This document shows, one piece after another, positions 1 through 10,478 of a stretch of 29,037 nt of DNA; position 1 is the stretch's first letter; every line of letters starts with the position of its first letter. The notes beneath the pieces are model-generated. The model had not been told where the DNA came from. It saw only the letters and a program-made list of their open reading frames with translations, and did no database searches. Source of the stretch: a virus. Where the stretch lies: the UHGV virus genome UHGV-0149439, one strand, 5' to 3'. A program made the translations under genes and the position numbers.

Positions 1-49
1 CGCCGCGGATTGTATCTTCCTGGCATGACGGATCAATGTGTTTTAAGTA

Positions 50-289
50 TTAATGCCACGTCTTTTTGCTCAGGCTTGTTATAGCTGAAATCGCATGTGC
101 TGAATCATCAAAAAGCCGGGTCAGTACAGGAACCCACTGCCTGTTTTTGTACTCAAGCACCTGATGTCCAGGCAGGTCTTTGCTGATGATGGCAAATGTC
201 CTGAGTTCAGGCGTTGGAACAGGGAGTTCGGTGCCAGGCGGGAAATATATTCTTACCCTGGCAATAATCATGTTGTCCATGCTCATCAT
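50..289 (-). CDS. Hypothetical small protein (79 aa from ATG at 289; ORF track opens at GTG 304), directly downstream of the dinI-like gene
   Basis: ATG at 289-287 overlaps the dinI-like stop in an ATGA arrangement (translational coupling); no family recognised. Confidence 0.45.
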   Translation of the reverse strand: MMSMDNMIIARVRIYFPPGTELPVPTPELRTFAIISKDLPGHQVLEYKNRQWVPVLTRLFDDSAHAISAITSLSKKTWH

Positions 290-525
290 TCGTTCACCAG
301 CCACATATCGGCTTCTTCAAACATCTCTTCCAGCATACGGTTAAGTCGTTCTTTTTCGGTCTTTGTGCTGTCGCTGTTTAATGCGTTAGCCTGCATTGGC
401 TTAACTCTCACGTCGGCGTCGGGGAAGATCCGGTGTACGCGCTTTGTCAGCTCGTTAAGAATGATGTTTCTTGCGCCCGGTAGCCCCTCGACATTACGCT
501 TGTCATAAACCAGTTCAACGAACAT
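286..525 (-). CDS. dinI: DinI-family protein (79 aa)
   Basis: Internal Met of track ORF 286..732; translation MFVELVYDK...EEADMWLVNE matches recalled DinI length and C-terminal acidic W-x-V-x-E ending; perfect LexA box 19-38 bp upstream. Confidence 0.8.
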   Translation of the reverse strand: MFVELVYDKRNVEGLPGARNIILNELTKRVHRIFPDADVRVKPMQANALNSDSTKTEKERLNRMLEEMFEEADMWLVNE

Positions 526-543
526 AAAAGCACCCCGGAAAAT

Positions 544-563
544 TACTGTGATTGTATACAGTA
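544..563 (-). promoter_or_regulatory. LexA (SOS) box TACTGTGATTGTATACAGTA upstream of the dinI-like gene
   Basis: Exact CTGT-N8-ACAG core with TA flanks, matching the enterobacterial LexA consensus. Confidence 0.75.
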
Positions 564-567
564 TTTT

Positions 568-587
568 TACTGTAAAAATAAATAGTG
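568..587 (-). promoter_or_regulatory. Possible second, imperfect LexA-like box (CTGT-N8-ATAG)
   Basis: tactgtaaaaataaatagtg; one mismatch in the conserved 3' triplet. Confidence 0.3.
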
Positions 588-645
588 TCAAGGTGAGCGG
601 AGCGCGAAAGGGGGATGTGTTTTTGTTACCCTTAGTTACAAATAG

Positions 646-679
646 AAAAACCCCAGACCGTGAGATCTGGGGTTCTTTT
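646..679. terminator. Bidirectional intrinsic terminator-like hairpin
   Basis: 7-bp stem ccccaga/tctgggg (651-657 / 666-672) flanked by an A-run upstream and a T-rich run downstream. Confidence 0.5.
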
Positions 680-835
680 AAAGTGCACGTGCACTTCACG
701 TGTATATTTTTGTCTTTTCTCGGTCTGCGCACTGTCTGGTCAGTGTCCTTAAGTGGCTGTTTTTATTGCCGCTGTCCGGTTGCAGTCCTATCAAAAGTGC
801 TGGCGGGAGTTGAACCAGCGTCCGTAATCATTTAA

Positions 836-1615
836 CTATCTGTTTTTGTTGAAATCATGTTCATCTATAAAATCCGCGTAGCTTTTGCGTATCCTTTGCT
901 GTATCTGCGCAGTCTTACTATTTTTTGATACTTGGAACATTAAAGCGCCGCGATAAGTATTTTCGTAGGGTTGCTTTCCGTACTCGCGTAGATGATATTG
1001 GCTTGAGTAACTTATAGAAAATTTCTTTCCCTTTGCATCTGAGAAAGTGATTTTTAATGACGGGCCATCAACAATTGTGGGTATTTCACCATTCATAATA
1101 CGTAATGAATTTAATTCGTTTAGCAATATAATTAGAAAAACTGGAGGAAGGATAGTTCTGATTGGTTTTTTTTCTATATTTATGGGTAGCAGATAATTAT
1201 GGGAGTAATAATTTTCTAAGCTATATGGAATGGTTATTCCACCCCCGGATATTTTTATTGATTTATTGTTTGAGTTTTTTCGAGTTTCATACTTTAAATC
1301 AAAAATCTTTGAAATGGAATTTAATTTTTCTTCGGCTGGATATTCCCAAAATAGCTTTACATTTATGGCAGTGCCTAACCCTGAGTTAACTAACTCAGGT
1401 TTGATATCATCTATGGGTATTCTAGCTAGTGGCATGGCTGAATAATGATGCTCATTCATTGAAACTGTGAGCAAATCCAAATCATTAATTAATAATTGTG
1501 GTCTAATTGATTCCTTTCTTTGAACTACTGTTTGCCTAATTGCAAGGTATGCCGCAATTGCTGATAATGTACTAGCAATCAATCCACCGTATGTAACAAA
1601 ACTAGTGTCTGCCAT
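836..1615 (-). CDS. Hypothetical membrane-anchored protein (259 aa), low-GC cargo gene next to the integrase
   Basis: Long ORF with clearly lower GC than flanking genes (by eye, not computed); N-terminal hydrophobic helix (GGLIASTLSAIAAYLAI); no recognisable family. Confidence 0.7.
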   Translation of the reverse strand: MADTSFVTYGGLIASTLSAIAAYLAIRQTVVQRKESIRPQLLINDLDLLTVSMNEHHYSAMPLARIPIDDIKPELVNSGLGTAINVKLFWEYPAEEKLNSISKIFDLKYETRKNSNNKSIKISGGGITIPYSLENYYSHNYLLPINIEKKPIRTILPPVFLIILLNELNSLRIMNGEIPTIVDGPSLKITFSDAKGKKFSISYSSQYHLREYGKQPYENTYRGALMFQVSKNSKTAQIQQRIRKSYADFIDEHDFNKNR

Positions 1616-1623
1616 GTTGTAGT

Positions 1624-1650
1624 ATTCCTGCCTAAAAATCAGGCAGGAAT
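1624..1650 (-). promoter_or_regulatory. Perfect 10-bp-stem hairpin between the integrase stop and the 259-aa gene start, covering its Shine-Dalgarno
   Basis: attcctgcct / aggcaggaat arms with a 7-nt loop; start codon 8 nt beyond the stem on the mRNA; no U-tract. Confidence 0.4.
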
Positions 1651-1656
1651 TATTTG

Positions 1657-2832
1657 TCAGTTAGTTTTTTTATTCAAGTGGGTAACAGATGTATTGTTAT
1701 CGTATGCTTTAAGATACCTACCGTAATGTCGAAAAAGCATCTCTGGCCCCTTATGCCCCATTTGCCCCGCCAGCCAGAAAAGGTTAACTCCTCGACTGAT
1801 TAGGCGTGTGGCATATGTGTGACGGGTCTGATAGGGATTGCGGTACCTGATACCGGCTTTCCGTAGCGTTGGCACCCACGCTTTTTTCCTTATTGCATCC
1901 GCGCTGGCCCATGGCTTGTATGTCTTTGGATCCTCAAAGACACAGCCATCTTTCATGAAAGTAAAGGGCTTTTGATCGTTAAGTGCGATTATCGCTTCCT
2001 CAGTTAATTCAACTTTGCGAGTTCCCGCCTTAGTTTTCGTACCTTTTGTCACGCCTGAAACACTGGCGCTCTGTACATGCGCCGTCTTCTCAATGAAATC
2101 AATATCCCTCCAGCGGAGTGCGCATAGTTCCGAGCTGCGAAGTCCTGTCTGGATCGCAAATCTGAATAAGTTCTTCCACTGCTTATTGCCTGTTGATGTT
2201 AACAGCGCGTTCACCTCAGCTGGTGACAGCGGATCAACCACATAACTACTTTCTGCCTCTGATTTATCACTTTGGTACCGTGAAGCTGTCACCAGTGATA
2301 CAGGGTTAATCTGAAGCACACCATCCGTCACCGCCTCATCCAAAGCTGAACGCAGGAATGACAGTTGGTTTCGGATAGTCTTTAATGTTGTTTTCTGGTT
2401 CTGGATCCATGTCTTCAGCGCGGCCGGCGTCAACTCACTTGCAGGAAAAATATGAAGTGATGACAGCGCGCTTCGGCATTTCTTATATCCACCAATTGTT
2501 GAAGGGGATAGTTTTCTCGTTTCACAGATAACCAGATACTCGTCCAGGTACATCTTCACCGTTTTGCCTGCGGCAGCGTTGCCGAAAATTTTTAACCGGG
2601 TAGAACGGGGAAAGTATTCTGCATAAACAAATGTCCCCCTCTCGATCTTGTTATGGATTTCGCCGAGTGTGCGCTCGGCGTATTTGATGTTTTTAGGAGT
2701 TACGTCCAGATTAGAAAGGGGCTCACGGCATTTAACCCCTTTATAAGTGAAAGTAATATTGATGGTTTCGCCGTTGCGGTGTTTCCTGATGGTTACGCCG
2801 CGCGGGAGCTTAGGCGATTCTGTCGTGCCCAT
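1657..2832 (-). CDS. int: Tyrosine site-specific integrase (lambda Int family), 391 aa
   Basis: Size and C-terminal catalytic region typical of tyrosine recombinases (R...H-x-x-R...Y arrangement, HTYATRL... context); GAGG Shine-Dalgarno 8 nt upstream; excisionase immediately upstream. Confidence 0.93.
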   Translation of the reverse strand: MGTTESPKLPRGVTIRKHRNGETINITFTYKGVKCREPLSNLDVTPKNIKYAERTLGEIHNKIERGTFVYAEYFPRSTRLKIFGNAAAGKTVKMYLDEYLVICETRKLSPSTIGGYKKCRSALSSLHIFPASELTPAALKTWIQNQKTTLKTIRNQLSFLRSALDEAVTDGVLQINPVSLVTASRYQSDKSEAESSYVVDPLSPAEVNALLTSTGNKQWKNLFRFAIQTGLRSSELCALRWRDIDFIEKTAHVQSASVSGVTKGTKTKAGTRKVELTEEAIIALNDQKPFTFMKDGCVFEDPKTYKPWASADAIRKKAWVPTLRKAGIRYRNPYQTRHTYATRLISRGVNLFWLAGQMGHKGPEMLFRHYGRYLKAYDNNTSVTHLNKKTN

Positions 2833-3011
2833 TTTGCAACCTCATTAAGATCAATCCATCTTTCCTTAACGCCGTCGACCTTTAGCACCTGAACCCCTTC
2901 ACGCCATACTCCACGTTGCACACGTTTGTTGATGGCATCCGGGGTTTCGCCAGTCTCTTTGCAATAAGTTGAGATGGGAACACAATCGAGGCTCAGCATA
3001 TATTTCTCCAT
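2793..3011 (-). CDS. xis: Excisionase-like small DNA-binding protein (72 aa; alternative start at 2999 has a better GGAG Shine-Dalgarno)
   Basis: Small basic protein directly upstream of and overlapping int (40 nt), the classic xis position. Confidence 0.65.
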   Translation of the reverse strand: MEKYMLSLDCVPISTYCKETGETPDAINKRVQRGVWREGVQVLKVDGVKERWIDLNEVAKWARQNRLSSRAA

Positions 3012-3062
3012 ACAATCCCGGCTGCACCCGGTAGTTTGATATTGTTTATTAGCTGGTTATTG

Positions 3063-3614
3063 TTAGTTGGTTTTCTTTAGTCCAAAGTAAAGTCCTGCGG
3101 CTATGCTTATTATGCCTGCAGCTAGAACACCAATAATCCAATAAAATAATGTTATAAATCGTTCTAACTGTTTGTCTGAGTAATCACTCATAACTTTTAA
3201 TGATGTGCTCAATGACTCCATATCTTTCTTCATGAGAGGTAAAGCCATTGCTTTTTCAGGACTATTTCCAAGTATATTATTAAGCGTGGATATCTTTTTC
3301 TGTATGTCATCAACTTTTACTTCCAACGCTTCTATTCGTATATTATCTGGGGTAAGGGTTGAAGTATTTTTTAAGGCACTTAACGTGTTTCTTACCTGAA
3401 ATATCTCATCCCTATAGGTGCTTATTTCGTTCATGAGATGATCTGTATCTATTTTTTTATCATAAGATGTAGGTAATGAAACATTTACTATTGAAGTGGC
3501 TTTATCTTTTATTTCTAAGGTCAAAGGAATGAGTATCGATCCCAAAGCGACCAGCATAAGAATAGGGGATAGTATTGCTATACTCTTTGCTAATGCGTTA
3601 CTTGTAAATGACAT
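3063..3614 (-). CDS. Hypothetical two-TM coiled-coil membrane protein (183 aa), low-GC
   Basis: Hydrophobic helices at both N- and C-termini with a charged heptad-like middle; GAGGGA Shine-Dalgarno before the ATG; TTGCAA -35-like element at 3651-3656. Confidence 0.7.
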   Translation of the reverse strand: MSFTSNALAKSIAILSPILMLVALGSILIPLTLEIKDKATSIVNVSLPTSYDKKIDTDHLMNEISTYRDEIFQVRNTLSALKNTSTLTPDNIRIEALEVKVDDIQKKISTLNNILGNSPEKAMALPLMKKDMESLSTSLKVMSDYSDKQLERFITLFYWIIGVLAAGIISIAAGLYFGLKKTN

Positions 3615-3801
3615 GAGTCCCTCTTCATAGTATTGTGTAGTACGTTTTTATTGCAACTTACTGTTATGGATAGTTTTTTGTTAAAGTCATTGAGAGATTA
3701 GCATGTTTTAGCGTTAATTCATTGCTTTAATGAGGCCAAAACTAATATTCCAAGCCCTGTCTCATTTGCTTAATGACACTATAGGCCAACAGACAATTTA
3801 A

Positions 3802-3900
3802 TCATGGCAGCGTCCAGTGTCGATTTGATTTATTCATAAACATACTCGTATCCAGTAAGCCAAGAAAATCTGGCACTACGGTCATGCGGTCATTACTCAT
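3802..3900 (-). CDS. Candidate small ORF (32 aa, MSNDRMTVVPDFLGLLDTSMFMNKSNRHWTLP), below the ORF-track size cut-off
   Basis: ATG preceded by GAGGG with a 7-nt spacer; same orientation as the leftward operon. Confidence 0.3.
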   Translation of the reverse strand: MSNDRMTVVPDFLGLLDTSMFMNKSNRHWTLP

Positions 3901-4209
3901 GGTTTTACCCTCGTTATGGCGGCTGCCACCGCCGAACTTTCTCCATACACAACAGAGAAGGGCATCTGCATTAGTCGGCGGCTTGCAGAGACCGCTTTCT
4001 TTTTGCCCGGGTGGATTGGGTTATGAGCCCGTCGCCCGGTGATGCCCTTTTCTGTTGTGCCCTGAAAAAGGCTGGCGGTTACCGGACAAGTGGGAAAACA
4101 CCGGGCCGCCAGAACAGGGAGTTACTTGTTATTGCTTTAGCCTGCTTTTAACCACATCAGGCGCGGTGGTATCCTTCTAAGTCGCTACAACCACGAAGGA
4201 ATTTTTTTT

Positions 4210-4449
4210 ATGAGCAATGTTACTTATCTCAACCATGCCAGGCTCGATGCCATTGAGTTGGCTATATCAAGGCTGGCTATTGCTATTACAGAGGCTGAAG
4301 GACCACATACTAAAGAGCTTGAAAGTTCTATCGCCCATTTCCGCGCGCTATTTGAAAAGCCTGATATCACTGAAAAAGAGCGCGAAACCTACCTCAGGAC
4401 GATAAGGTTGTTGGATCCATTAAATAGCGACCCTACCGAGCCGTTCTGA
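4210..4449 (+). CDS. Hypothetical protein (79 aa)
   Basis: ATG with AAGGA Shine-Dalgarno 9 nt upstream; its 3' end overlaps the convergent ORF 4420..4725 by 30 nt. Confidence 0.4.
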   Translation: MSNVTYLNHARLDAIELAISRLAIAITEAEGPHTKELESSIAHFRALFEKPDITEKERETYLRTIRLLDPLNSDPTEPF

Positions 4450-4725
4450 ATCGAGGCGTGCCGCTCTTTCCCTTCGCTCTAAAATCGCCTCAACAATTTC
4501 GACTCCATTGAGGCGCTTCTTTCCATTAATGTCCTGCTGGACCTCTTCTAATGCTGTTTGCGCAAGCTGAATGCGCGATTCAGTCCCGGAATTTGGCTCG
4601 AGCTGTTGAACTCGCTTAGCATCCTCCAGCAGTAGAGCAATGATGTGCTTCAGTTCGTTTGCGTCCACCGTGAACTCCTTTGAAATTTTAAGTGTTAGCG
4701 AATCATCCGGTTCTTCATATGCCAC
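4420..4725 (-). CDS. Hypothetical protein (101 aa), first ORF downstream of the left operator (lambda N position) but not N-like
   Basis: GTG start without a clear Shine-Dalgarno; charged helical composition; position immediately left of the OL-like repeats. Confidence 0.35.
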   Translation of the reverse strand: MAYEEPDDSLTLKISKEFTVDANELKHIIALLLEDAKRVQQLEPNSGTESRIQLAQTALEEVQQDINGKKRLNGVEIVEAILERRERAARLDSERLGRVAI

Positions 4726-4783
4726 CGACGGCTACTTCGTGGGCGTCCTGCCTGTTCGCTATGGAGTAGACAATAAAATTAAA

Positions 4784-4821
4784 TTGCGAATAACGCAAGT
4801 AAATAATTGCGAATTGCGCAA
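4784..4821. promoter_or_regulatory. Left operator candidate: two 15-bp sites TTGCGaataaCGCAA (4784-4798) and TTGCGaattgCGCAA (4807-4821)
   Basis: Perfect inverted half-sites TTGCG/CGCAA with 5-bp spacers, centres 23 bp apart; related sites recur between cI and cro. Confidence 0.5.
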
Positions 4822-4833
4822 TATTAGGTGCAT

Positions 4834-4858
4834 AAAAAAACCGCCATAAAGGCGGTTT
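4834..4858 (-). terminator. Intrinsic terminator downstream of cI
   Basis: Hairpin ccgcc-ataaa-ggcgg followed on the minus strand by a 7-nt U-tract. Confidence 0.6.
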
Positions 4859-4876
4859 CAACATTGATATGTAGCG

Positions 4877-5569
4877 TCAGGCGTGACGTTTGAATGATTG
4901 AGATTGGCTTATCATTACTTTCCCAAAAATGTAAAAACGGTGTTCGTTAGTCTTGTCCACGGACCATTCTCTATATTTTGGGTTATCCGATATCACCAAC
5001 AACTTATCAGGTATCATCTGTAATCGTTTGACGTAAATTTTATCATCAAAACCAAATACATAGATTCCATCACCATCGAACTCATGAATAGAGATATCAA
5101 CGAAGAGAAGATCACCAGGCTCGATTGTCTCAGCCATACTGTCGCCTCGAACGTTGATTACCTTTACTTGATCTGCCGTTCTTCCGCCGAACATCGCTAG
5201 CGCACGTTCATTGTTGTATTCGATTGACCTGATGACATCAATGATGTCGCTGCCTTGAATAAAGCCGCCACCAGCACTGGCACTAACATCAAGAATCTCC
5301 ACTCTAAACACAGATCCATCTCCAGAATGTGGATTACTACCACTGTATTCACATACAGTAGTTTTATTTCCACCTGGAGTAAATAGATCAGCAACGCTAA
5401 CGCCTAAAGCTTGAGCATATTTGCTAAGTGATTGTTCAGTAAATGACTTCTGCTTGCCAGTTTCTACACGCGAGATGTTAGCTCCGTCGACACCAACGGC
5501 TTCAGCAAGATCAGCGATTTTTAGACCCTTCGCAGTGCGAAGTTCTCTTATGCGGTTTCCTATGTTCAT
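4877..5569 (-). CDS. cI: CI-type prophage repressor: N-terminal HTH, C-terminal S24 LexA-like autopeptidase (230 aa)
   Basis: N-terminal HTH (IADLAEAVGVDGANISRVETGK); C-terminal region with GDSM (catalytic Ser) and a downstream Lys; divergent from cro. Confidence 0.9.
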   Translation of the reverse strand: MNIGNRIRELRTAKGLKIADLAEAVGVDGANISRVETGKQKSFTEQSLSKYAQALGVSVADLFTPGGNKTTVCEYSGSNPHSGDGSVFRVEILDVSASAGGGFIQGSDIIDVIRSIEYNNERALAMFGGRTADQVKVINVRGDSMAETIEPGDLLFVDISIHEFDGDGIYVFGFDDKIYVKRLQMIPDKLLVISDNPKYREWSVDKTNEHRFYIFGKVMISQSQSFKRHA

Positions 5570-5589
5570 GCGTCTATTACATGTTTTTT

Positions 5590-5652
5590 TTGCGTGATGT
5601 GCAAAGCAACTTGCGCAAGTCGTATGTTCTAATTAATATGCGTTTTACGCAA
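5590..5652. promoter_or_regulatory. Right operator/promoter region between cI and cro
   Basis: Operator-like sites TTGCGtgatgTGCAA (5590-5604), palindrome TTGCGCAA (5611-5618), ATGCGttttaCGCAA (5638-5652); candidate cro promoter -35 TTGCGC (5611-5616), 17-bp spacer, -10 TAATAT (5634-5639). Confidence 0.5.
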
Positions 5653-5666
5653 TTAAAGGAGGGTAT

Positions 5667-5912
5667 ATGCAATCACCGTTACGAATCTTGCGTAAATCGC
5701 AAGGTATGACTCTTTCCTATGTAGCAAAAGGGGTTGATATCGACCCGGGAAATCTAAGTCGGATAGAGCGAGGGCAGCAAATTGCTTCCCTAGATATTGC
5801 TGAACGTCTAGTCCGTTTCTTCGCGGGAAAAATCAATGAGCTAGAAATCCTTTATCCACACCGCTATTCGAACTGTACAGGCGCGAGTACAGACATAAAA
5901 CCACAGGAATAA
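5667..5912 (+). CDS. cro: Cro-like HTH regulator (81 aa)
   Basis: AGGAGG Shine-Dalgarno; HTH segment MTLSYVAKGVDIDPGNLSRIERG; divergent from cI. Confidence 0.8.
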   Translation: MQSPLRILRKSQGMTLSYVAKGVDIDPGNLSRIERGQQIASLDIAERLVRFFAGKINELEILYPHRYSNCTGASTDIKPQE

Positions 5913-5922
5913 GGGGTTAACC

Positions 5923-6474
5923 GTGGGTAACGAACCAATCTGGAAAGTCGAACGTCAGCCTAGTTGGCTGGTGGTAGCGATTAAAAAAACGATTACCGAT
6001 CTGCCTGGTGGATATTCTGAGGCTGCGGAATGGTTGGGCGTGACAGAGAACGCATTGTTTAACCGCCTTCGTGTGGACGGGGATCAGATCTTCCCTATGG
6101 GATGGGCGATGGTGCTACAGAAAGCCGCCGGTGTTAGCTACATAGCAGATGCGTTTTCTCGTCAAACAGATAACGGGATTCATATCCCTGGTGCAGCACC
6201 AGAAACAGAGAACGAAGAAATTGGCTTAAAGCTGGCTGAGCTGGTGGGCAGGCTTGGGGATCTGGTCAACGCATACCGTCGATACATCGATGATGGTGTA
6301 GTTGATAAAGGGGAGTGGGACAGTCTGAATGAAATCGCCTACCAGTTCCGGGTAACGCTTATGACGTTCCTGAACCTGATTTCACGAGTTTATTGTCTTC
6401 CTGAAAAGAGTGACGCCCGCGAGTGTGCAGCTCCGGGCGCCTTGGCGAACAAATCTTCGAGTATGGAGAAATAA
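5923..6474 (+). CDS. CII-like phage regulatory protein (183 aa); family assignment tentative
   Basis: Position immediately after cro; AAGGGG Shine-Dalgarno then GTG; HTH-like segment AAEWLGVTENALFNRLR. Confidence 0.45.
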   Translation: MGNEPIWKVERQPSWLVVAIKKTITDLPGGYSEAAEWLGVTENALFNRLRVDGDQIFPMGWAMVLQKAAGVSYIADAFSRQTDNGIHIPGAAPETENEEIGLKLAELVGRLGDLVNAYRRYIDDGVVDKGEWDSLNEIAYQFRVTLMTFLNLISRVYCLPEKSDARECAAPGALANKSSSMEK

Positions 6475-8551: not shown

Positions 8552-10478
8552 GATTATCGTTGATAACTTTGCTGGTGGCGGTGGTGCATCAACGGGTATT
8601 GAACTGGCGATCGGACGCAGCGTGGATATTGCGATCAACCACGACGAAAACGCCATTGCGATGCACAAGACGAACCACCCGGACACACTGCATTATTGTG
8701 AATCCGTATTTGACGTGGATCCTGTAGCCGCCACCGGAGGTAATCCAGTCGGACTGGCGTGGTTTAGCCCGGACTGCCGACACTTCTCGAAGGCAAAAGG
8801 CGCAAAGCCTGTGAAAAAAGAGATACGCGGTCTTGCCTGGATTGTTCTGCGTTGGGCACTGGCGAAGCGACCGCGTGTGATGATGCTGGAGAACGTGGAA
8901 GAGTTCAAAACGTGGGGACCGCTGCTGGCCGATGAAATGCGTCCGGATCCTGCCCGCACTGGCGAAACATTCAATGCATTTGTCGGCATGCTGTCCACTG
9001 GCATTCCTGCTGACCACCCGGCACTGTCAGAAGTTTGTGAGTTTCTGTCTATTGAAAGAGGTAGCGAGCAGGCGCAACTGCTGGTGGATGGGCTTGGATA
9101 TGATGTTGATTATCGCGAACTACGCGCGTGTGATTACGGCGCGCCGACGATCCGCAAACGCTTCTTCATGGTTATGCGCTGCGATGGCTGCCCAATCCAG
9201 TGGCCTGCTGTTACCCATGGGGATCCTAAGTCTCTGGAGGTGCAGAGCGGCAGGCTGATGCCATGGCGTACCGCTGCGGAATGTATCGACTGGAATGTTC
9301 CGGCCCTGTCCATCTTCGACCGCAAAAAACCGCTGGCGGAGAACACTCTGAAGCGGATCGCGCGCGGCATACAGCGCTTTGTTATCGAAAGTGCGTCGCC
9401 GTTTATCGTGAAGTGTAACCACACAAGCTCAAAAAATTCGTATGACGCTTTTCGCGGGCAGTCGCTGAATGAACCATTACAGACCATTACTAAAAAACTC
9501 GGCTACGCGTTAGCCGTTCCACACCTGACAAAATTCCGCACTGGCGCAACCGGGCAGCCCGTTACCGAACCTGTCCCGACGGTAACCGCTGGCACGTCAA
9601 AACGCCCGGGTGGGAATGGGCATGCTCTCGGGATTGTTGAGGCTGCACTGACGCCATTCCTGGCGGGTAATGGTGGTAGTGAATACCAGGCTAAACCGCG
9701 CCCGCTGGATAAACCTGCTCATACCATTCTGAAGCAATCCCGCGCCTGTCTGGTTGCGCCAGTGATAGCCCGCCAGTTTGGGGCCAGCGTTGGCCATCGG
9801 GCAGACGAACCGAGCGCAACCATAACCGCTGGCGGTGGCGGTAAATCTCAACTGGTAACGCCTACGCTGATCCAGATGGGTTATGGCGAACGACCTGGAC
9901 AAGAACCGCGTGTGCTGCGGCTGGATAACCCGCTGGGGACCGTTACTGCAGGCGGAAATAAATTTGCGACGGTGAGCGCGTTCCTGGCGAAACACTACGG
10001 CGGTAACTATACGGGGCCTGGTGTCAGTATGGATGAACCCGCGCATTCAGTGACCACTGTCGACCATCATGCAGTAGTTGCCTCTCATCTGGTGAAACTG
10101 CGTGGAACATGCCGCGACGGGCAACGCCTGGATGGGCCCATGCCAACAATCACCGCTGGTGGCCAACACGTGGGTGAGGTACGCACATTTCTCGAGACGT
10201 ATTGCGGGGAAAGTGACGATGAATGGCTGGTAACTATCGATGGGGTGAAATACCAGATCGTTGATATCGGAATGCGCATGTTGCAGCCGCATGAACTCTA
10301 CAAAGCGCAGGGCTTCCCCGATGGATACGTTATTGATCAGGACTACCGTGGAAATCGCTATGCAAAAGATAAGCAGGTAGCCCGCTGCGGTAATGCGGTA
10401 CCACCACCATTCGCCAGGGCGCTGGTGGAGGCAAATCTTCCGGAACTGTGTGCAGTGCAACAACAGGAGGTGGCATGA
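8544..10478 (+). CDS. DNA cytosine-5 methyltransferase with an unusually long variable region of repeated modules (644 aa)
   Basis: Motif I FAGGGG, catalytic SPDCRHFSKA (PC motif), ENV motif MLENVEEF, C-terminal CGNAVPPP; five T(I/V)TAGG-type repeats in the variable region. Confidence 0.88.
   Translation: MREIIVDNFAGGGGASTGIELAIGRSVDIAINHDENAIAMHKTNHPDTLHYCESVFDVDPVAATGGNPVGLAWFSPDCRHFSKAKGAKPVKKEIRGLAWIVLRWALAKRPRVMMLENVEEFKTWGPLLADEMRPDPARTGETFNAFVGMLSTGIPADHPALSEVCEFLSIERGSEQAQLLVDGLGYDVDYRELRACDYGAPTIRKRFFMVMRCDGCPIQWPAVTHGDPKSLEVQSGRLMPWRTAAECIDWNVPALSIFDRKKPLAENTLKRIARGIQRFVIESASPFIVKCNHTSSKNSYDAFRGQSLNEPLQTITKKLGYALAVPHLTKFRTGATGQPVTEPVPTVTAGTSKRPGGNGHALGIVEAALTPFLAGNGGSEYQAKPRPLDKPAHTILKQSRACLVAPVIARQFGASVGHRADEPSATITAGGGGKSQLVTPTLIQMGYGERPGQEPRVLRLDNPLGTVTAGGNKFATVSAFLAKHYGGNYTGPGVSMDEPAHSVTTVDHHAVVASHLVKLRGTCRDGQRLDGPMPTITAGGQHVGEVRTFLETYCGESDDEWLVTIDGVKYQIVDIGMRMLQPHELYKAQGFPDGYVIDQDYRGNRYAKDKQVARCGNAVPPPFARALVEANLPELCAVQQQEVA

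Follow-up and report, generated by a model that had tools for sequence, protein, structure and literature searches.

The stretch of DNA analyzed in this study (hereafter, the window) comprises 29,037 nucleotides (nt) of the virus genome UHGV-0149439. At positions 544–587, it contains two 20-mers with 4 bases between them, which read as binding sites (boxes) for the SOS repressor LexA and lie upstream of a DinI-family gene, close to a prophage integrated at ssrA, the gene for transfer-messenger RNA (tmRNA). The window was found to come from Citrobacter koseri, being 100% identical over 10,525 nt to CP017665.1. The original prediction, made from the sequence alone, had proposed that this dinI homologue could tune the induction threshold of the prophage, and had held that its assignment to the prophage or to the flanking chromosome could not be decided.

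Box 1 (544–563; TACTGTGATTGTATACAGTA) is a perfect CTGT-N8-ACAG sequence with TA flanks, and it agrees in both half-sites with the LexA operator consensus (CTGT-N8-ACAG / TACTG(TA)5CAGTA). This pattern occurs three times in the window, as compared with 0.26 occurrences expected, and none of 100 shuffled windows gave three. Sites were scored with an approximate, symmetrized weight matrix built from 27 E. coli SOS boxes of the literature, and all LexA scores given here are approximate in this sense. Box 1 scored 20.1 bits, equal to the median of the training sites and second among 29,018 positions; the top score over 100 shuffled windows was 15.9 bits. Box 2 (568–587; TACTGTAAAAATAAATAGTG), at 16.0 bits and third among the 29,018 positions, is degenerate, since on the gene strand (CACTATTTATTTTTACAGTA) one of its half-sites reads CTA, not CTG. 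We found that homologous cassettes of E. coli phage LMessi, E. coli DX6 and Atlantibacter carry an intact box at this place (CACTGTTTATTTTTACAGTA), as compared with which one CTG half-site is without its G in C. koseri; box 2 therefore goes back to a good ancestral box that acquired a point mutation. Box 1 is kept in the copies of LMessi, E. coli DX6, E. coli O157, PhiR12 and Atlantibacter.

A sigma-70 promoter of the dinI operon was predicted, not mapped, on the minus strand at 563–591, with a −35 hexamer TTGACA (591–586), a 17-nt spacer and a −10 hexamer AAAAAT (568–563). It matches the consensus at 10 of 12 positions and was the sole promoter called by the consensus scan. Box 2 fills the spacer between the hexamers, and box 1 extends from the last base of the −10 hexamer through the expected start site and ends 18 nt short of the dinI ATG, so that the two boxes cover the promoter spacer plus −10 to about +13. 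The boxes thus overlap the predicted promoter and start, as is the case for operators of the LexA regulon. The spacing agrees with that of the dinI homologues of the Gifsy prophages of Salmonella, whose LexA boxes lie 19 nt from the ATG. The Gifsy genes are LexA-controlled, their LexA boxes being needed for SOS induction of the operon (PMC3121763), and nalidixic acid raises their expression 14–23 fold (PMC8072944). A survey of 80 related dinI loci, which span several dozen named enterobacterial species, showed a CTG-N10-CAG box in the 150 nt upstream of 78 of them, mostly some 35 and/or 59 nt ahead of the start; this indicates that LexA control is a trait of the dinI family. Between the ssrA end and the dinI promoter lies an intrinsic terminator (646–677, minus strand) with a 14-bp stem and a U run. 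It shields the dinI promoter from upstream transcription and probably also ends ssrA transcription in strains that carry no island at this site.

The dinI-like gene occupies 286–525 on the minus strand (ATG at 525–523, stop codon at 288–286) and encodes 79 amino acids of the MFVELVYDKRNV subfamily ('MsgA-like', phage-type). Its product matched the Pfam family DinI (PF06183) over profile positions 3–63 of 63 with an E-value of 2.4e-23 and 82.6 bits against a cutoff of 24.2, and it matched PHROG 189, 'RecA filament binding protein DinI', with an E-value of 2.1e-21. It could also be aligned with E. coli DinI (PDB 1GHH; RecA-DinI cryo-electron microscopy structure 7YWA) at an E-value of 2.2e-7, residues 15–79 corresponding to DinI residues 13–81. 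The alignment takes in the C-terminal acidic helix (RLNRMLEEMFEEADMWLVNE with RISEILQETWESADDWFVSE of 1GHH), which places the protein in the DinI family and which, according to the literature, mimics DNA in the RecA groove. Taken together with the box scores, these matches bear out the claim that a consensus LexA box and an imperfect second one precede a DinI-family gene. The gene shares with E. coli dinI its Pfam family, the acidic C-terminal helix and LexA regulation, but it differs in its N-terminus, in its genomic context and in having a coupled partner gene. Moreover, it falls below the threshold of the canonical DinI equivalog (NCBIfam NF007893; 43.6 bits against a cutoff of 111). The closest relatives are the phage genes phi80 dinL and those of HK225, mEp237 and LMessi (78–87%). 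The ratio of nonsynonymous to synonymous substitution rates (dN/dS) of dinI against its paralogue was 0.02, suggesting strong purifying selection. Box 1, the promoter hexamers and the dinI frame were intact and identical in all 10 strains compared, while the flanks vary; these 10 loci were chosen for an identical DinI protein, and only the missing synonymous change is informative here. In its regulation and family, then, the locus is a LexA-controlled phage-type dinI, which is an already well-known kind.

We found that the operon is bicistronic, its second gene having been missed by the original prediction. The partner open reading frame (ORF; 50–289, minus strand) encodes 79 amino acids, or 84 from a GTG at 304, and its ATG overlaps the stop codon of dinI (ATGA). 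It had no match in Pfam, NCBIfam or PHROG, and the 84-amino acid version had none by tblastn against 50,697 phage records, while a word-indexed protein search returned only Citrobacter sequences and one from Klebsiella. The wider family was found only by an exhaustive HMMER search and direct inspection of the ORFs downstream of dinI genes. It is a small family of the Enterobacteriaceae with the consensus MDNMIISGVRIYFP..LP.P....TFA.....W.....F....AI.A....W, and the AlphaFold model of the partner has a predicted local distance difference test (pLDDT) score of 86. In each case where the context of a member was seen, the gene before it is a LexA-boxed dinI of the MFVEL subtype, whose stop codon overlaps the start of the member or lies no more than 6 nt from it. 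Such pairs were seen at prophage ends, at the ssrA site described here, divergent from umuDC-like operons, and in Serratia phage OS31; among the 80 related dinI loci, about 10 have the partner. The dN/dS of the partner was 0.15 between paralogues and about 1.3 among alleles of the resident copy, one of which is a nonsense allele.

The pair in Serratia phage vB_SspS_OS31, on which its authors remarked, is built like that of the window: the DinI-like gene p60 has a LexA box 14 bp upstream, and its stop codon overlaps the start of p59, a 79-amino acid orphan ORF (PMC7556043). p59 aligns with the partner family at conserved positions, at 18% identity to the partner, which was not significant by pairwise BLASTP. 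The OS31 pair sits after tail genes and in the opposite orientation. Both it and the din-like gene of Klebsiella phage phiKO2, also compared (PMC7556043), reside in functional phages, unlike the copy in the window, which is a relic as described below.

An exact lookup of the DinI protein returned 24 long contigs with a shared downstream context, consisting of the 79-amino acid ORF, DUF1440 and methionine-salvage genes. In at least 12 of the 24, nothing is inserted, and smpB-ssrA is followed by dinI 272 nt further on (locus L004, with ssrA at 9366–9728, and 10 similar places, and L012). Elsewhere, ssrA and dinI are separated by P2-like prophages (L003, L008), a P4-like satellite (L006), CP4-57-like islands (L005, L009, L010), a mobilizable element with a relaxase (L007) or, at L011, the prophage of the window itself. 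The window was 97.7% identical to the island-free chromosome over 834 nt, the match starting at window position 828 inside a 3' fragment of ssrA. This displaced fragment is the attR core of the prophage (799–828, minus strand; ssrA-end copy at 823–799, GGACGCtGGTTCAACTCCCGCCAGC), and as compared with the intact ssrA end it shows a G to T change and is without 6 bp (TCCACC). The corresponding attachment (att) core of Citrobacter phage phiNP is a 25-bp sequence at the ssrA 3' end, GGTTCAACTCCCGCCAGCTCCACCA (PMC6456863). An Rfam scan of window positions 1–6000 in E-value mode gave sub-threshold noise plus a 12.7-bit tmRNA trace, which is the attR fragment, and ARAGORN called no tRNA or tmRNA in the window.

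Because dinI lies beyond attR and is present in island-free strains, it is outside the prophage of the window. A prophage gene should lie between attL and attR and be missing when the prophage is missing, and dinI is present in the island-free L004 and L012. The question that had seemed undecidable is thus answered: the gene is not part of the prophage but lies on the chromosomal side of attR, most probably as a phage-derived relic. The comparison of the locus with and without the prophage, which formed the first half of the test proposed for refuting a role in induction, accordingly gave a locus that is conserved in the island-free strains. As side observations on this site, ssrA is a very busy integration hot spot of C. 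koseri, with at least five unrelated element types across strains (L003–L012) and the dinI relic always left, and the damaged attR core may hinder excision of the prophage of the window.

The phage origin of the cassette was apparent from its non-coding part as well as from its gene. The spacer downstream of ssrA (588–798, minus strand) is conserved with ssrA-integrating phages and prophages, and the non-coding region 545–828 showed 85–92% identity to the ends of phages LMessi, PhiR12_x and phiES15, the LMessi match extending through dinI. LMessi has, at 85% identity, the order tail fibre, dinI, boxes, spacer, ssrA core and int. The order of the ssrA-proximal arm (ssrA core, spacer, terminator, TTGACA, tandem LexA boxes, dinI) was recovered at 70–92% identity in LMessi, PhiR12, phiES15, phiNP, E. 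coli DX6 and E. coli O157. Matches to window positions 1–835 were present in 693 of 5,426 complete E. coli genomes, adjoining ssrA in the rows listed, which shows that the cassette is a variable element in that species. In E. coli DX6 and O157:H7 EC4115, smpB-ssrA, the spacer and a DinI-like gene are followed by tail-fibre assembly genes. In C. koseri, by contrast, convergent tail-fibre genes were not found after the cassette, where DUF1440 and the methionine-salvage genes follow instead, and the window cassette is therefore a relic, not the end of a live prophage.

One of the closest described systems is phiNP, which integrates at the ssrA 3' end and whose ORF1 is DinI-like (PMC6456863). It shares with the window the att core, the spacer, a terminator at the equivalent place, the TTGACA hexamer, the two LexA boxes and a dinI-family gene. 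Its opposite end has the order xis-int-cargo(-attR), as in the window, with integrase and excisionase DNA 84% identical. On the other hand, phiNP has the other DinI subtype (MRVEISIAKEK...), no partner ORF, and hicAB as the next genes, and its copy is in the phage, whereas that of the window has been left in the chromosome. One ssrA-spacer-promoter-LexA cassette thus drives either of two exchangeable DinI subtypes; C. koseri, LMessi and DX6 have MFVELVYDKRNV..., and O157, PhiR12 and phiNP have MRIEI.... The DNA homology between the subtypes breaks exactly at box 1 (window position 544; L019, L002, L101), which resembles a modular exchange of alleles on the downstream side of the operator.

Paralogous dinI-partner cassettes head two other prophage ends of C. 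koseri. One of them (L105), in the same genome, has ybjQ and an Amidase_2 gene as neighbours, with hicAB and tail fibres coming after it; its identity with the window copy is 88.7% over 630 nt, the homology starting exactly at the −35 hexamer TTGACA. The other (L110, L111), seen in other assemblies only, adjoins a yejM-like sulfatase gene and has the gene of a cloacin/pyocin-S bacteriocin after it. The L105 cassette belongs to a second prophage of CP017665.1 (about 549–578 kb; L014, L105), whose structural proteins agree with those of the window prophage in length and order, the sheath protein being identical. With its ybjQ/Amidase_2 flank and its own dinI-partner-hicAB-glycosyltransferase arm, this prophage creates large repeats in one chromosome. 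Patches of homology to a prophage arm were also observed on either side of DUF1440 (L011 10729–10743 and 11522–11593; L112 73–90 and 973–1044); the old phage remnant may extend past dinI and the 79-amino acid ORF, with DUF1440 as former cargo.

Taken together, these data suggest that 544–587 is, with good probability, the operator of a LexA-repressed two-gene SOS operon, and that this operon is a phage-derived relic of an ssrA-proximal arm, fixed in the C. koseri chromosome. We propose that the cassette, consisting of the ssrA 3' end, a spacer of about 120 nt, the terminator, the TTGACA promoter, the tandem boxes and dinI with or without the partner, would be the arm delivered by ssrA-integrating phages. 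phiNP-like and other ssrA phages would place this arm by the tmRNA gene on integration, and C. koseri would have kept only this arm. In the strain of the window, a phiNP-like prophage has since inserted at the 3' end of ssrA, by which the resident cassette came to lie on the attR (integrase) side; the newcomer very probably set its own copy of the dinI-partner(-bacteriocin) arrangement next to ssrA. In undamaged cells, the promoter would be occluded by LexA dimers bound to box 1 and, less strongly, to the mutated box 2. Upon formation of activated RecA (RecA*), LexA autocleavage would allow transcription of the operon, the partner being translated by coupling through the ATGA overlap. The DinI-like protein would then bind the groove of the RecA filament via its acidic C-terminal helix and modulate filament stability and coprotease activity.

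Several points weigh against this interpretation. LexA control of the C. koseri locus is inferred from its sequence and its homologues, box 1 and box 2 were scored with an approximate matrix, and the loss in box 2 falls in the critical CTG, so that repression may be exerted by box 1 alone. The direction of transfer, a phage relic as opposed to the capture of chromosomal DNA by phages, is likewise inferred, on the grounds that the cassette is variable in E. coli and that paralogous cassettes occupy other att sites. The partner half of the resident operon may be decaying, although the small numbers make this a hint only. Finally, the copy that we place at the far end of the window prophage (see below) rests on an overlapping IMG/VR contig, the ssrA-proximal junction of this genome lying outside the sequence seen.

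Among the alternatives, the one that fares best, while still unlikely, is that the locus is an antirepressor operon of the Gifsy type, in which the 79-amino acid partner would inactivate prophage repressors in trans and induction would proceed via the partner, not via DinI. The dinI-antirepressor-irsA operons of Gifsy-1, -2 and -3 (Lemire, Figueroa-Bossi and Bossi 2011; PMC3121763) do have the architecture of the window locus, with a terminator, a LexA-box promoter, a phage-type dinI first and a small ORF second, the Gifsy dinI-gftA pair being the model for a small coupled second gene. In addition, the partner family has been seen only after dinI in every context, and OS31 shows the same pairing. 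However, the second gene showed no homology to GftA, GfoA or FsoA (hhalign probability 0.2%), and no partner homologue was found by tblastn among the phage records or in the left arm of Fels-1. The repressors differ as well: those of the Gifsy type are inactivated by binding without being cleaved, and the CI adjoining the window locus is of the cleavable type, with the S24 Ala-Gly, Ser and Lys residues intact. The Gifsy operons are SOS-induced and lie in mid-prophage after the replication genes, while the window copy is a chromosomal relic without irsA. We rejected the partner as an antirepressor homologue, as profiles gave no similarity to GftA of Gifsy-2 and the analogy is positional only. 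A tblastn match in Gifsy-2 was also rejected as a dinI-gftA operon, since it proved to be a truncated right-end dinI. The Tum protein of coliphage 186 is comparable in being an SOS-controlled, DinI-related phage protein tied to prophage induction. It is, however, a LexA-controlled antirepressor with a DinI-like C-terminal half, a fusion whose antirepressor half acts, and the window gene has no such domain.

That the boxes are a non-functional fossil, the cassette decaying and being unregulated or unexpressed, appears somewhat less likely still. It would be in line with the lost CTG of box 2, and with the nonsense allele of the partner in one strain and its within-species dN/dS near 1, but it is at odds with the intact and identical box 1, promoter hexamers and dinI frame in 10 of 10 strains with varying flanks, and with the strong purifying selection on the dinI paralogues. 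We consider it very improbable that the gene is the canonical core-genome dinI of the host, with no phage history. The gene is indeed fixed at one chromosomal site in the species and is LexA-boxed like E. coli dinI; nevertheless, its equivalog score lies far below the cutoff, its closest relatives are phage genes, and the whole cassette, including the non-coding spacer, is common to phages and variable E. coli prophages. Paralogous cassettes head other prophages, one of them in the same genome, and only 2 of the 80 related dinI loci adjoin ssrA. Lastly, cargo ('moron') status, with dinI moving in and out with the window prophage, can be dismissed, for although dinI is only about 310 nt from the prophage end and such phages do carry dinI, it stands past the attR fragment, is retained in the island-free L004 and L012 and beside unrelated islands, and is kept by this phage family at the opposite end (attL, tail fibres), not by int.

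With the relic operon thus preferred, we considered its bearing on the neighbouring repressor. The prophage CI gene (4877–5569, minus strand) encodes 230 amino acids with a helix-turn-helix (HTH) domain and a Peptidase_S24 domain (E-value 2.6e-20). Its Ala-Gly site, together with the Ser in GDSM and the Lys in KRL, is shared without exception by 61 homologues, in agreement with the S24 autocleavage domain that had been ascribed to it. The public gene call for this repressor (L011 5215–5649) covers a 144-amino acid S24 fragment only, from a GTG at window position 5311, a start that lies 30 nt downstream of an internal LexA box (see below); the full 230-amino acid ORF with the HTH is open. DinI, LexA, UmuD and lambda CI bind the same elements of the RecA filament (PMC9945995), and DinI is reported in the literature to stabilize RecA filaments at stoichiometric levels and to inhibit the coprotease at high levels. 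Since CI is of the cleavable type and DinI shares these elements with lambda CI, competition for RecA* by which DinI would tune CI cleavage is mechanistically conceivable, and the present data neither support nor refute it. Non-polar dinI deletions in Gifsy-1 and Gifsy-3 left induction unchanged (PMC3121763). As the Gifsy prophages use antirepressors, not cleavable repressors (PMC3121763), this result is not decisive for a prophage with a cleavable CI. A dedicated induction circuit is nonetheless not supported, considering that the gene is not specific to the prophage, that there are several DinI paralogues and that the Gifsy deletions were neutral. If the neighbouring CI is affected at all, this would be through a general action in trans of a DinI that is one among several paralogues in the cell.

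The best LexA site of the window lies in cI itself (5341–5360; 22.4 bits), in the part coding for the linker between the HTH and S24 domains. We found ACTGTAT-N7-CAGT at position 211 of the coding sequence in all 61 distinct cI homologues from IMG/VR (70–100% amino acid identity). The linker is hypervariable in its protein sequence, and yet Thr is always encoded by ACT, Val by GTA and Ser by AGT, and the variable codon before the box always ends in C. Among 104 degenerate cI codons with an invariant amino acid, 7 have an invariant third base; 3 of these are in the box, and a fourth, Phe63 (TTT), is 17 nt upstream. The box also occurs in phiNP, Flotzy, a Klebsiella phage, two E. coli prophages, and FsoR of Fels-1, which is 51.5% identical. 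Such invariance across immunity types would be explained better by a site for a host factor than by a phage operator. An invariant TTTAC lies 17 nt upstream of TACTGT, and the TTTACn-17-TACTGT arrangement may represent a weak promoter in the sense direction that LexA occludes and from which an HTH-less C-terminal CI fragment could be made in SOS. Another possibility is that LexA bound at the box forms a roadblock to the transcription of cI. With a strict consensus scan, neither strand of the box region yielded a promoter, and no in-frame start at which a C-terminal CI fragment could begin was found to be conserved. An antisense promoter at the box was rejected, the would-be −35 region not being conserved, as was a role in driving a conserved downstream gene, the genes after cI differing across the family. 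Since Fels-1 induction is independent of LexA cleavage (PMC3121763), any role of the box would be modulatory. Searches of the searchable literature gave no relevant description of an intragenic or cI-internal LexA box, which is weak evidence of novelty. We suggest tentatively, and with slightly more doubt than confidence, that the SOS input to this prophage family does not run only via RecA-stimulated CI cleavage, and that, along with two or more LexA-controlled DinI paralogues and their partner on the prophage flanks, LexA directly regulates a 'lambda-type' repressor gene.

The attR-proximal end of the prophage (836–3011, minus strand) is phiNP-like and consists of a cargo ORF, an integrase and an excisionase. 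The AT-rich cargo ORF (836–1615, minus strand; 259 amino acids) lies between the integrase and attR and matched PHROG 7259, to which no function is assigned there, and no Pfam family. Beyond it, as seen from attR, lie the tyrosine integrase (1657–2832, minus strand) and the excisionase (2793–3011, minus strand). In phiNP, the slot of the cargo ORF holds an AAA ATPase, and the slot may house accessory or defence genes.

The far end of the prophage was reached via the sheath protein and carries tail fibre, tail-fibre assembly, immunity and bacteriocin genes, the stretch ending inside the bacteriocin gene. An IMG/VR contig that is 100% identical to this end over 1,024 nt continues with the rest of the bacteriocin gene, the partner, dinI and the LexA boxes. 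By this overlap, the window-type prophage very probably carries its own dinI copy at its far end. The bacteriocins found directly downstream of the prophage-borne dinI-partner pairs are of the cloacin/pyocin-S type, of about 760–775 amino acids, with small immunity genes (L013 20203–21470; L112 1130–3406, the far end of the window prophage; L110 6853–10056). By analogy with colicins, the bacteriocin may be SOS-expressed from the dinI-partner promoter.

Two by-products of this analysis carry more weight than the finding itself, namely a conserved, uncharacterized 79-amino acid family that has been found solely as the coupled partner of LexA-controlled dinI genes, and a LexA operator conserved inside cI genes. 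As for the locus, a LexA-boxed dinI beside an integrase is no evidence of a prophage-specific induction circuit, since here the gene is a resident relic, which the incoming phage very probably duplicates. Lysogens of ssrA phages would thereby accumulate several SOS-induced DinI paralogues; C. koseri has at least three paralogous cassettes: two were observed directly in this genome, and the far end of the prophage very probably bears a further one. With the old cassette on one side and the new one on the other, the prophage would be flanked by direct repeats about 630 bp long and about 88% identical, which would be a substrate for RecA-dependent prophage loss or exchange, and programs that call prophage boundaries are prone to misplace the ends of such elements. 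The stacking of DinI paralogues could lift the DinI:RecA ratio in the SOS response, and hence the thresholds for cleavage of LexA, UmuD and CI.

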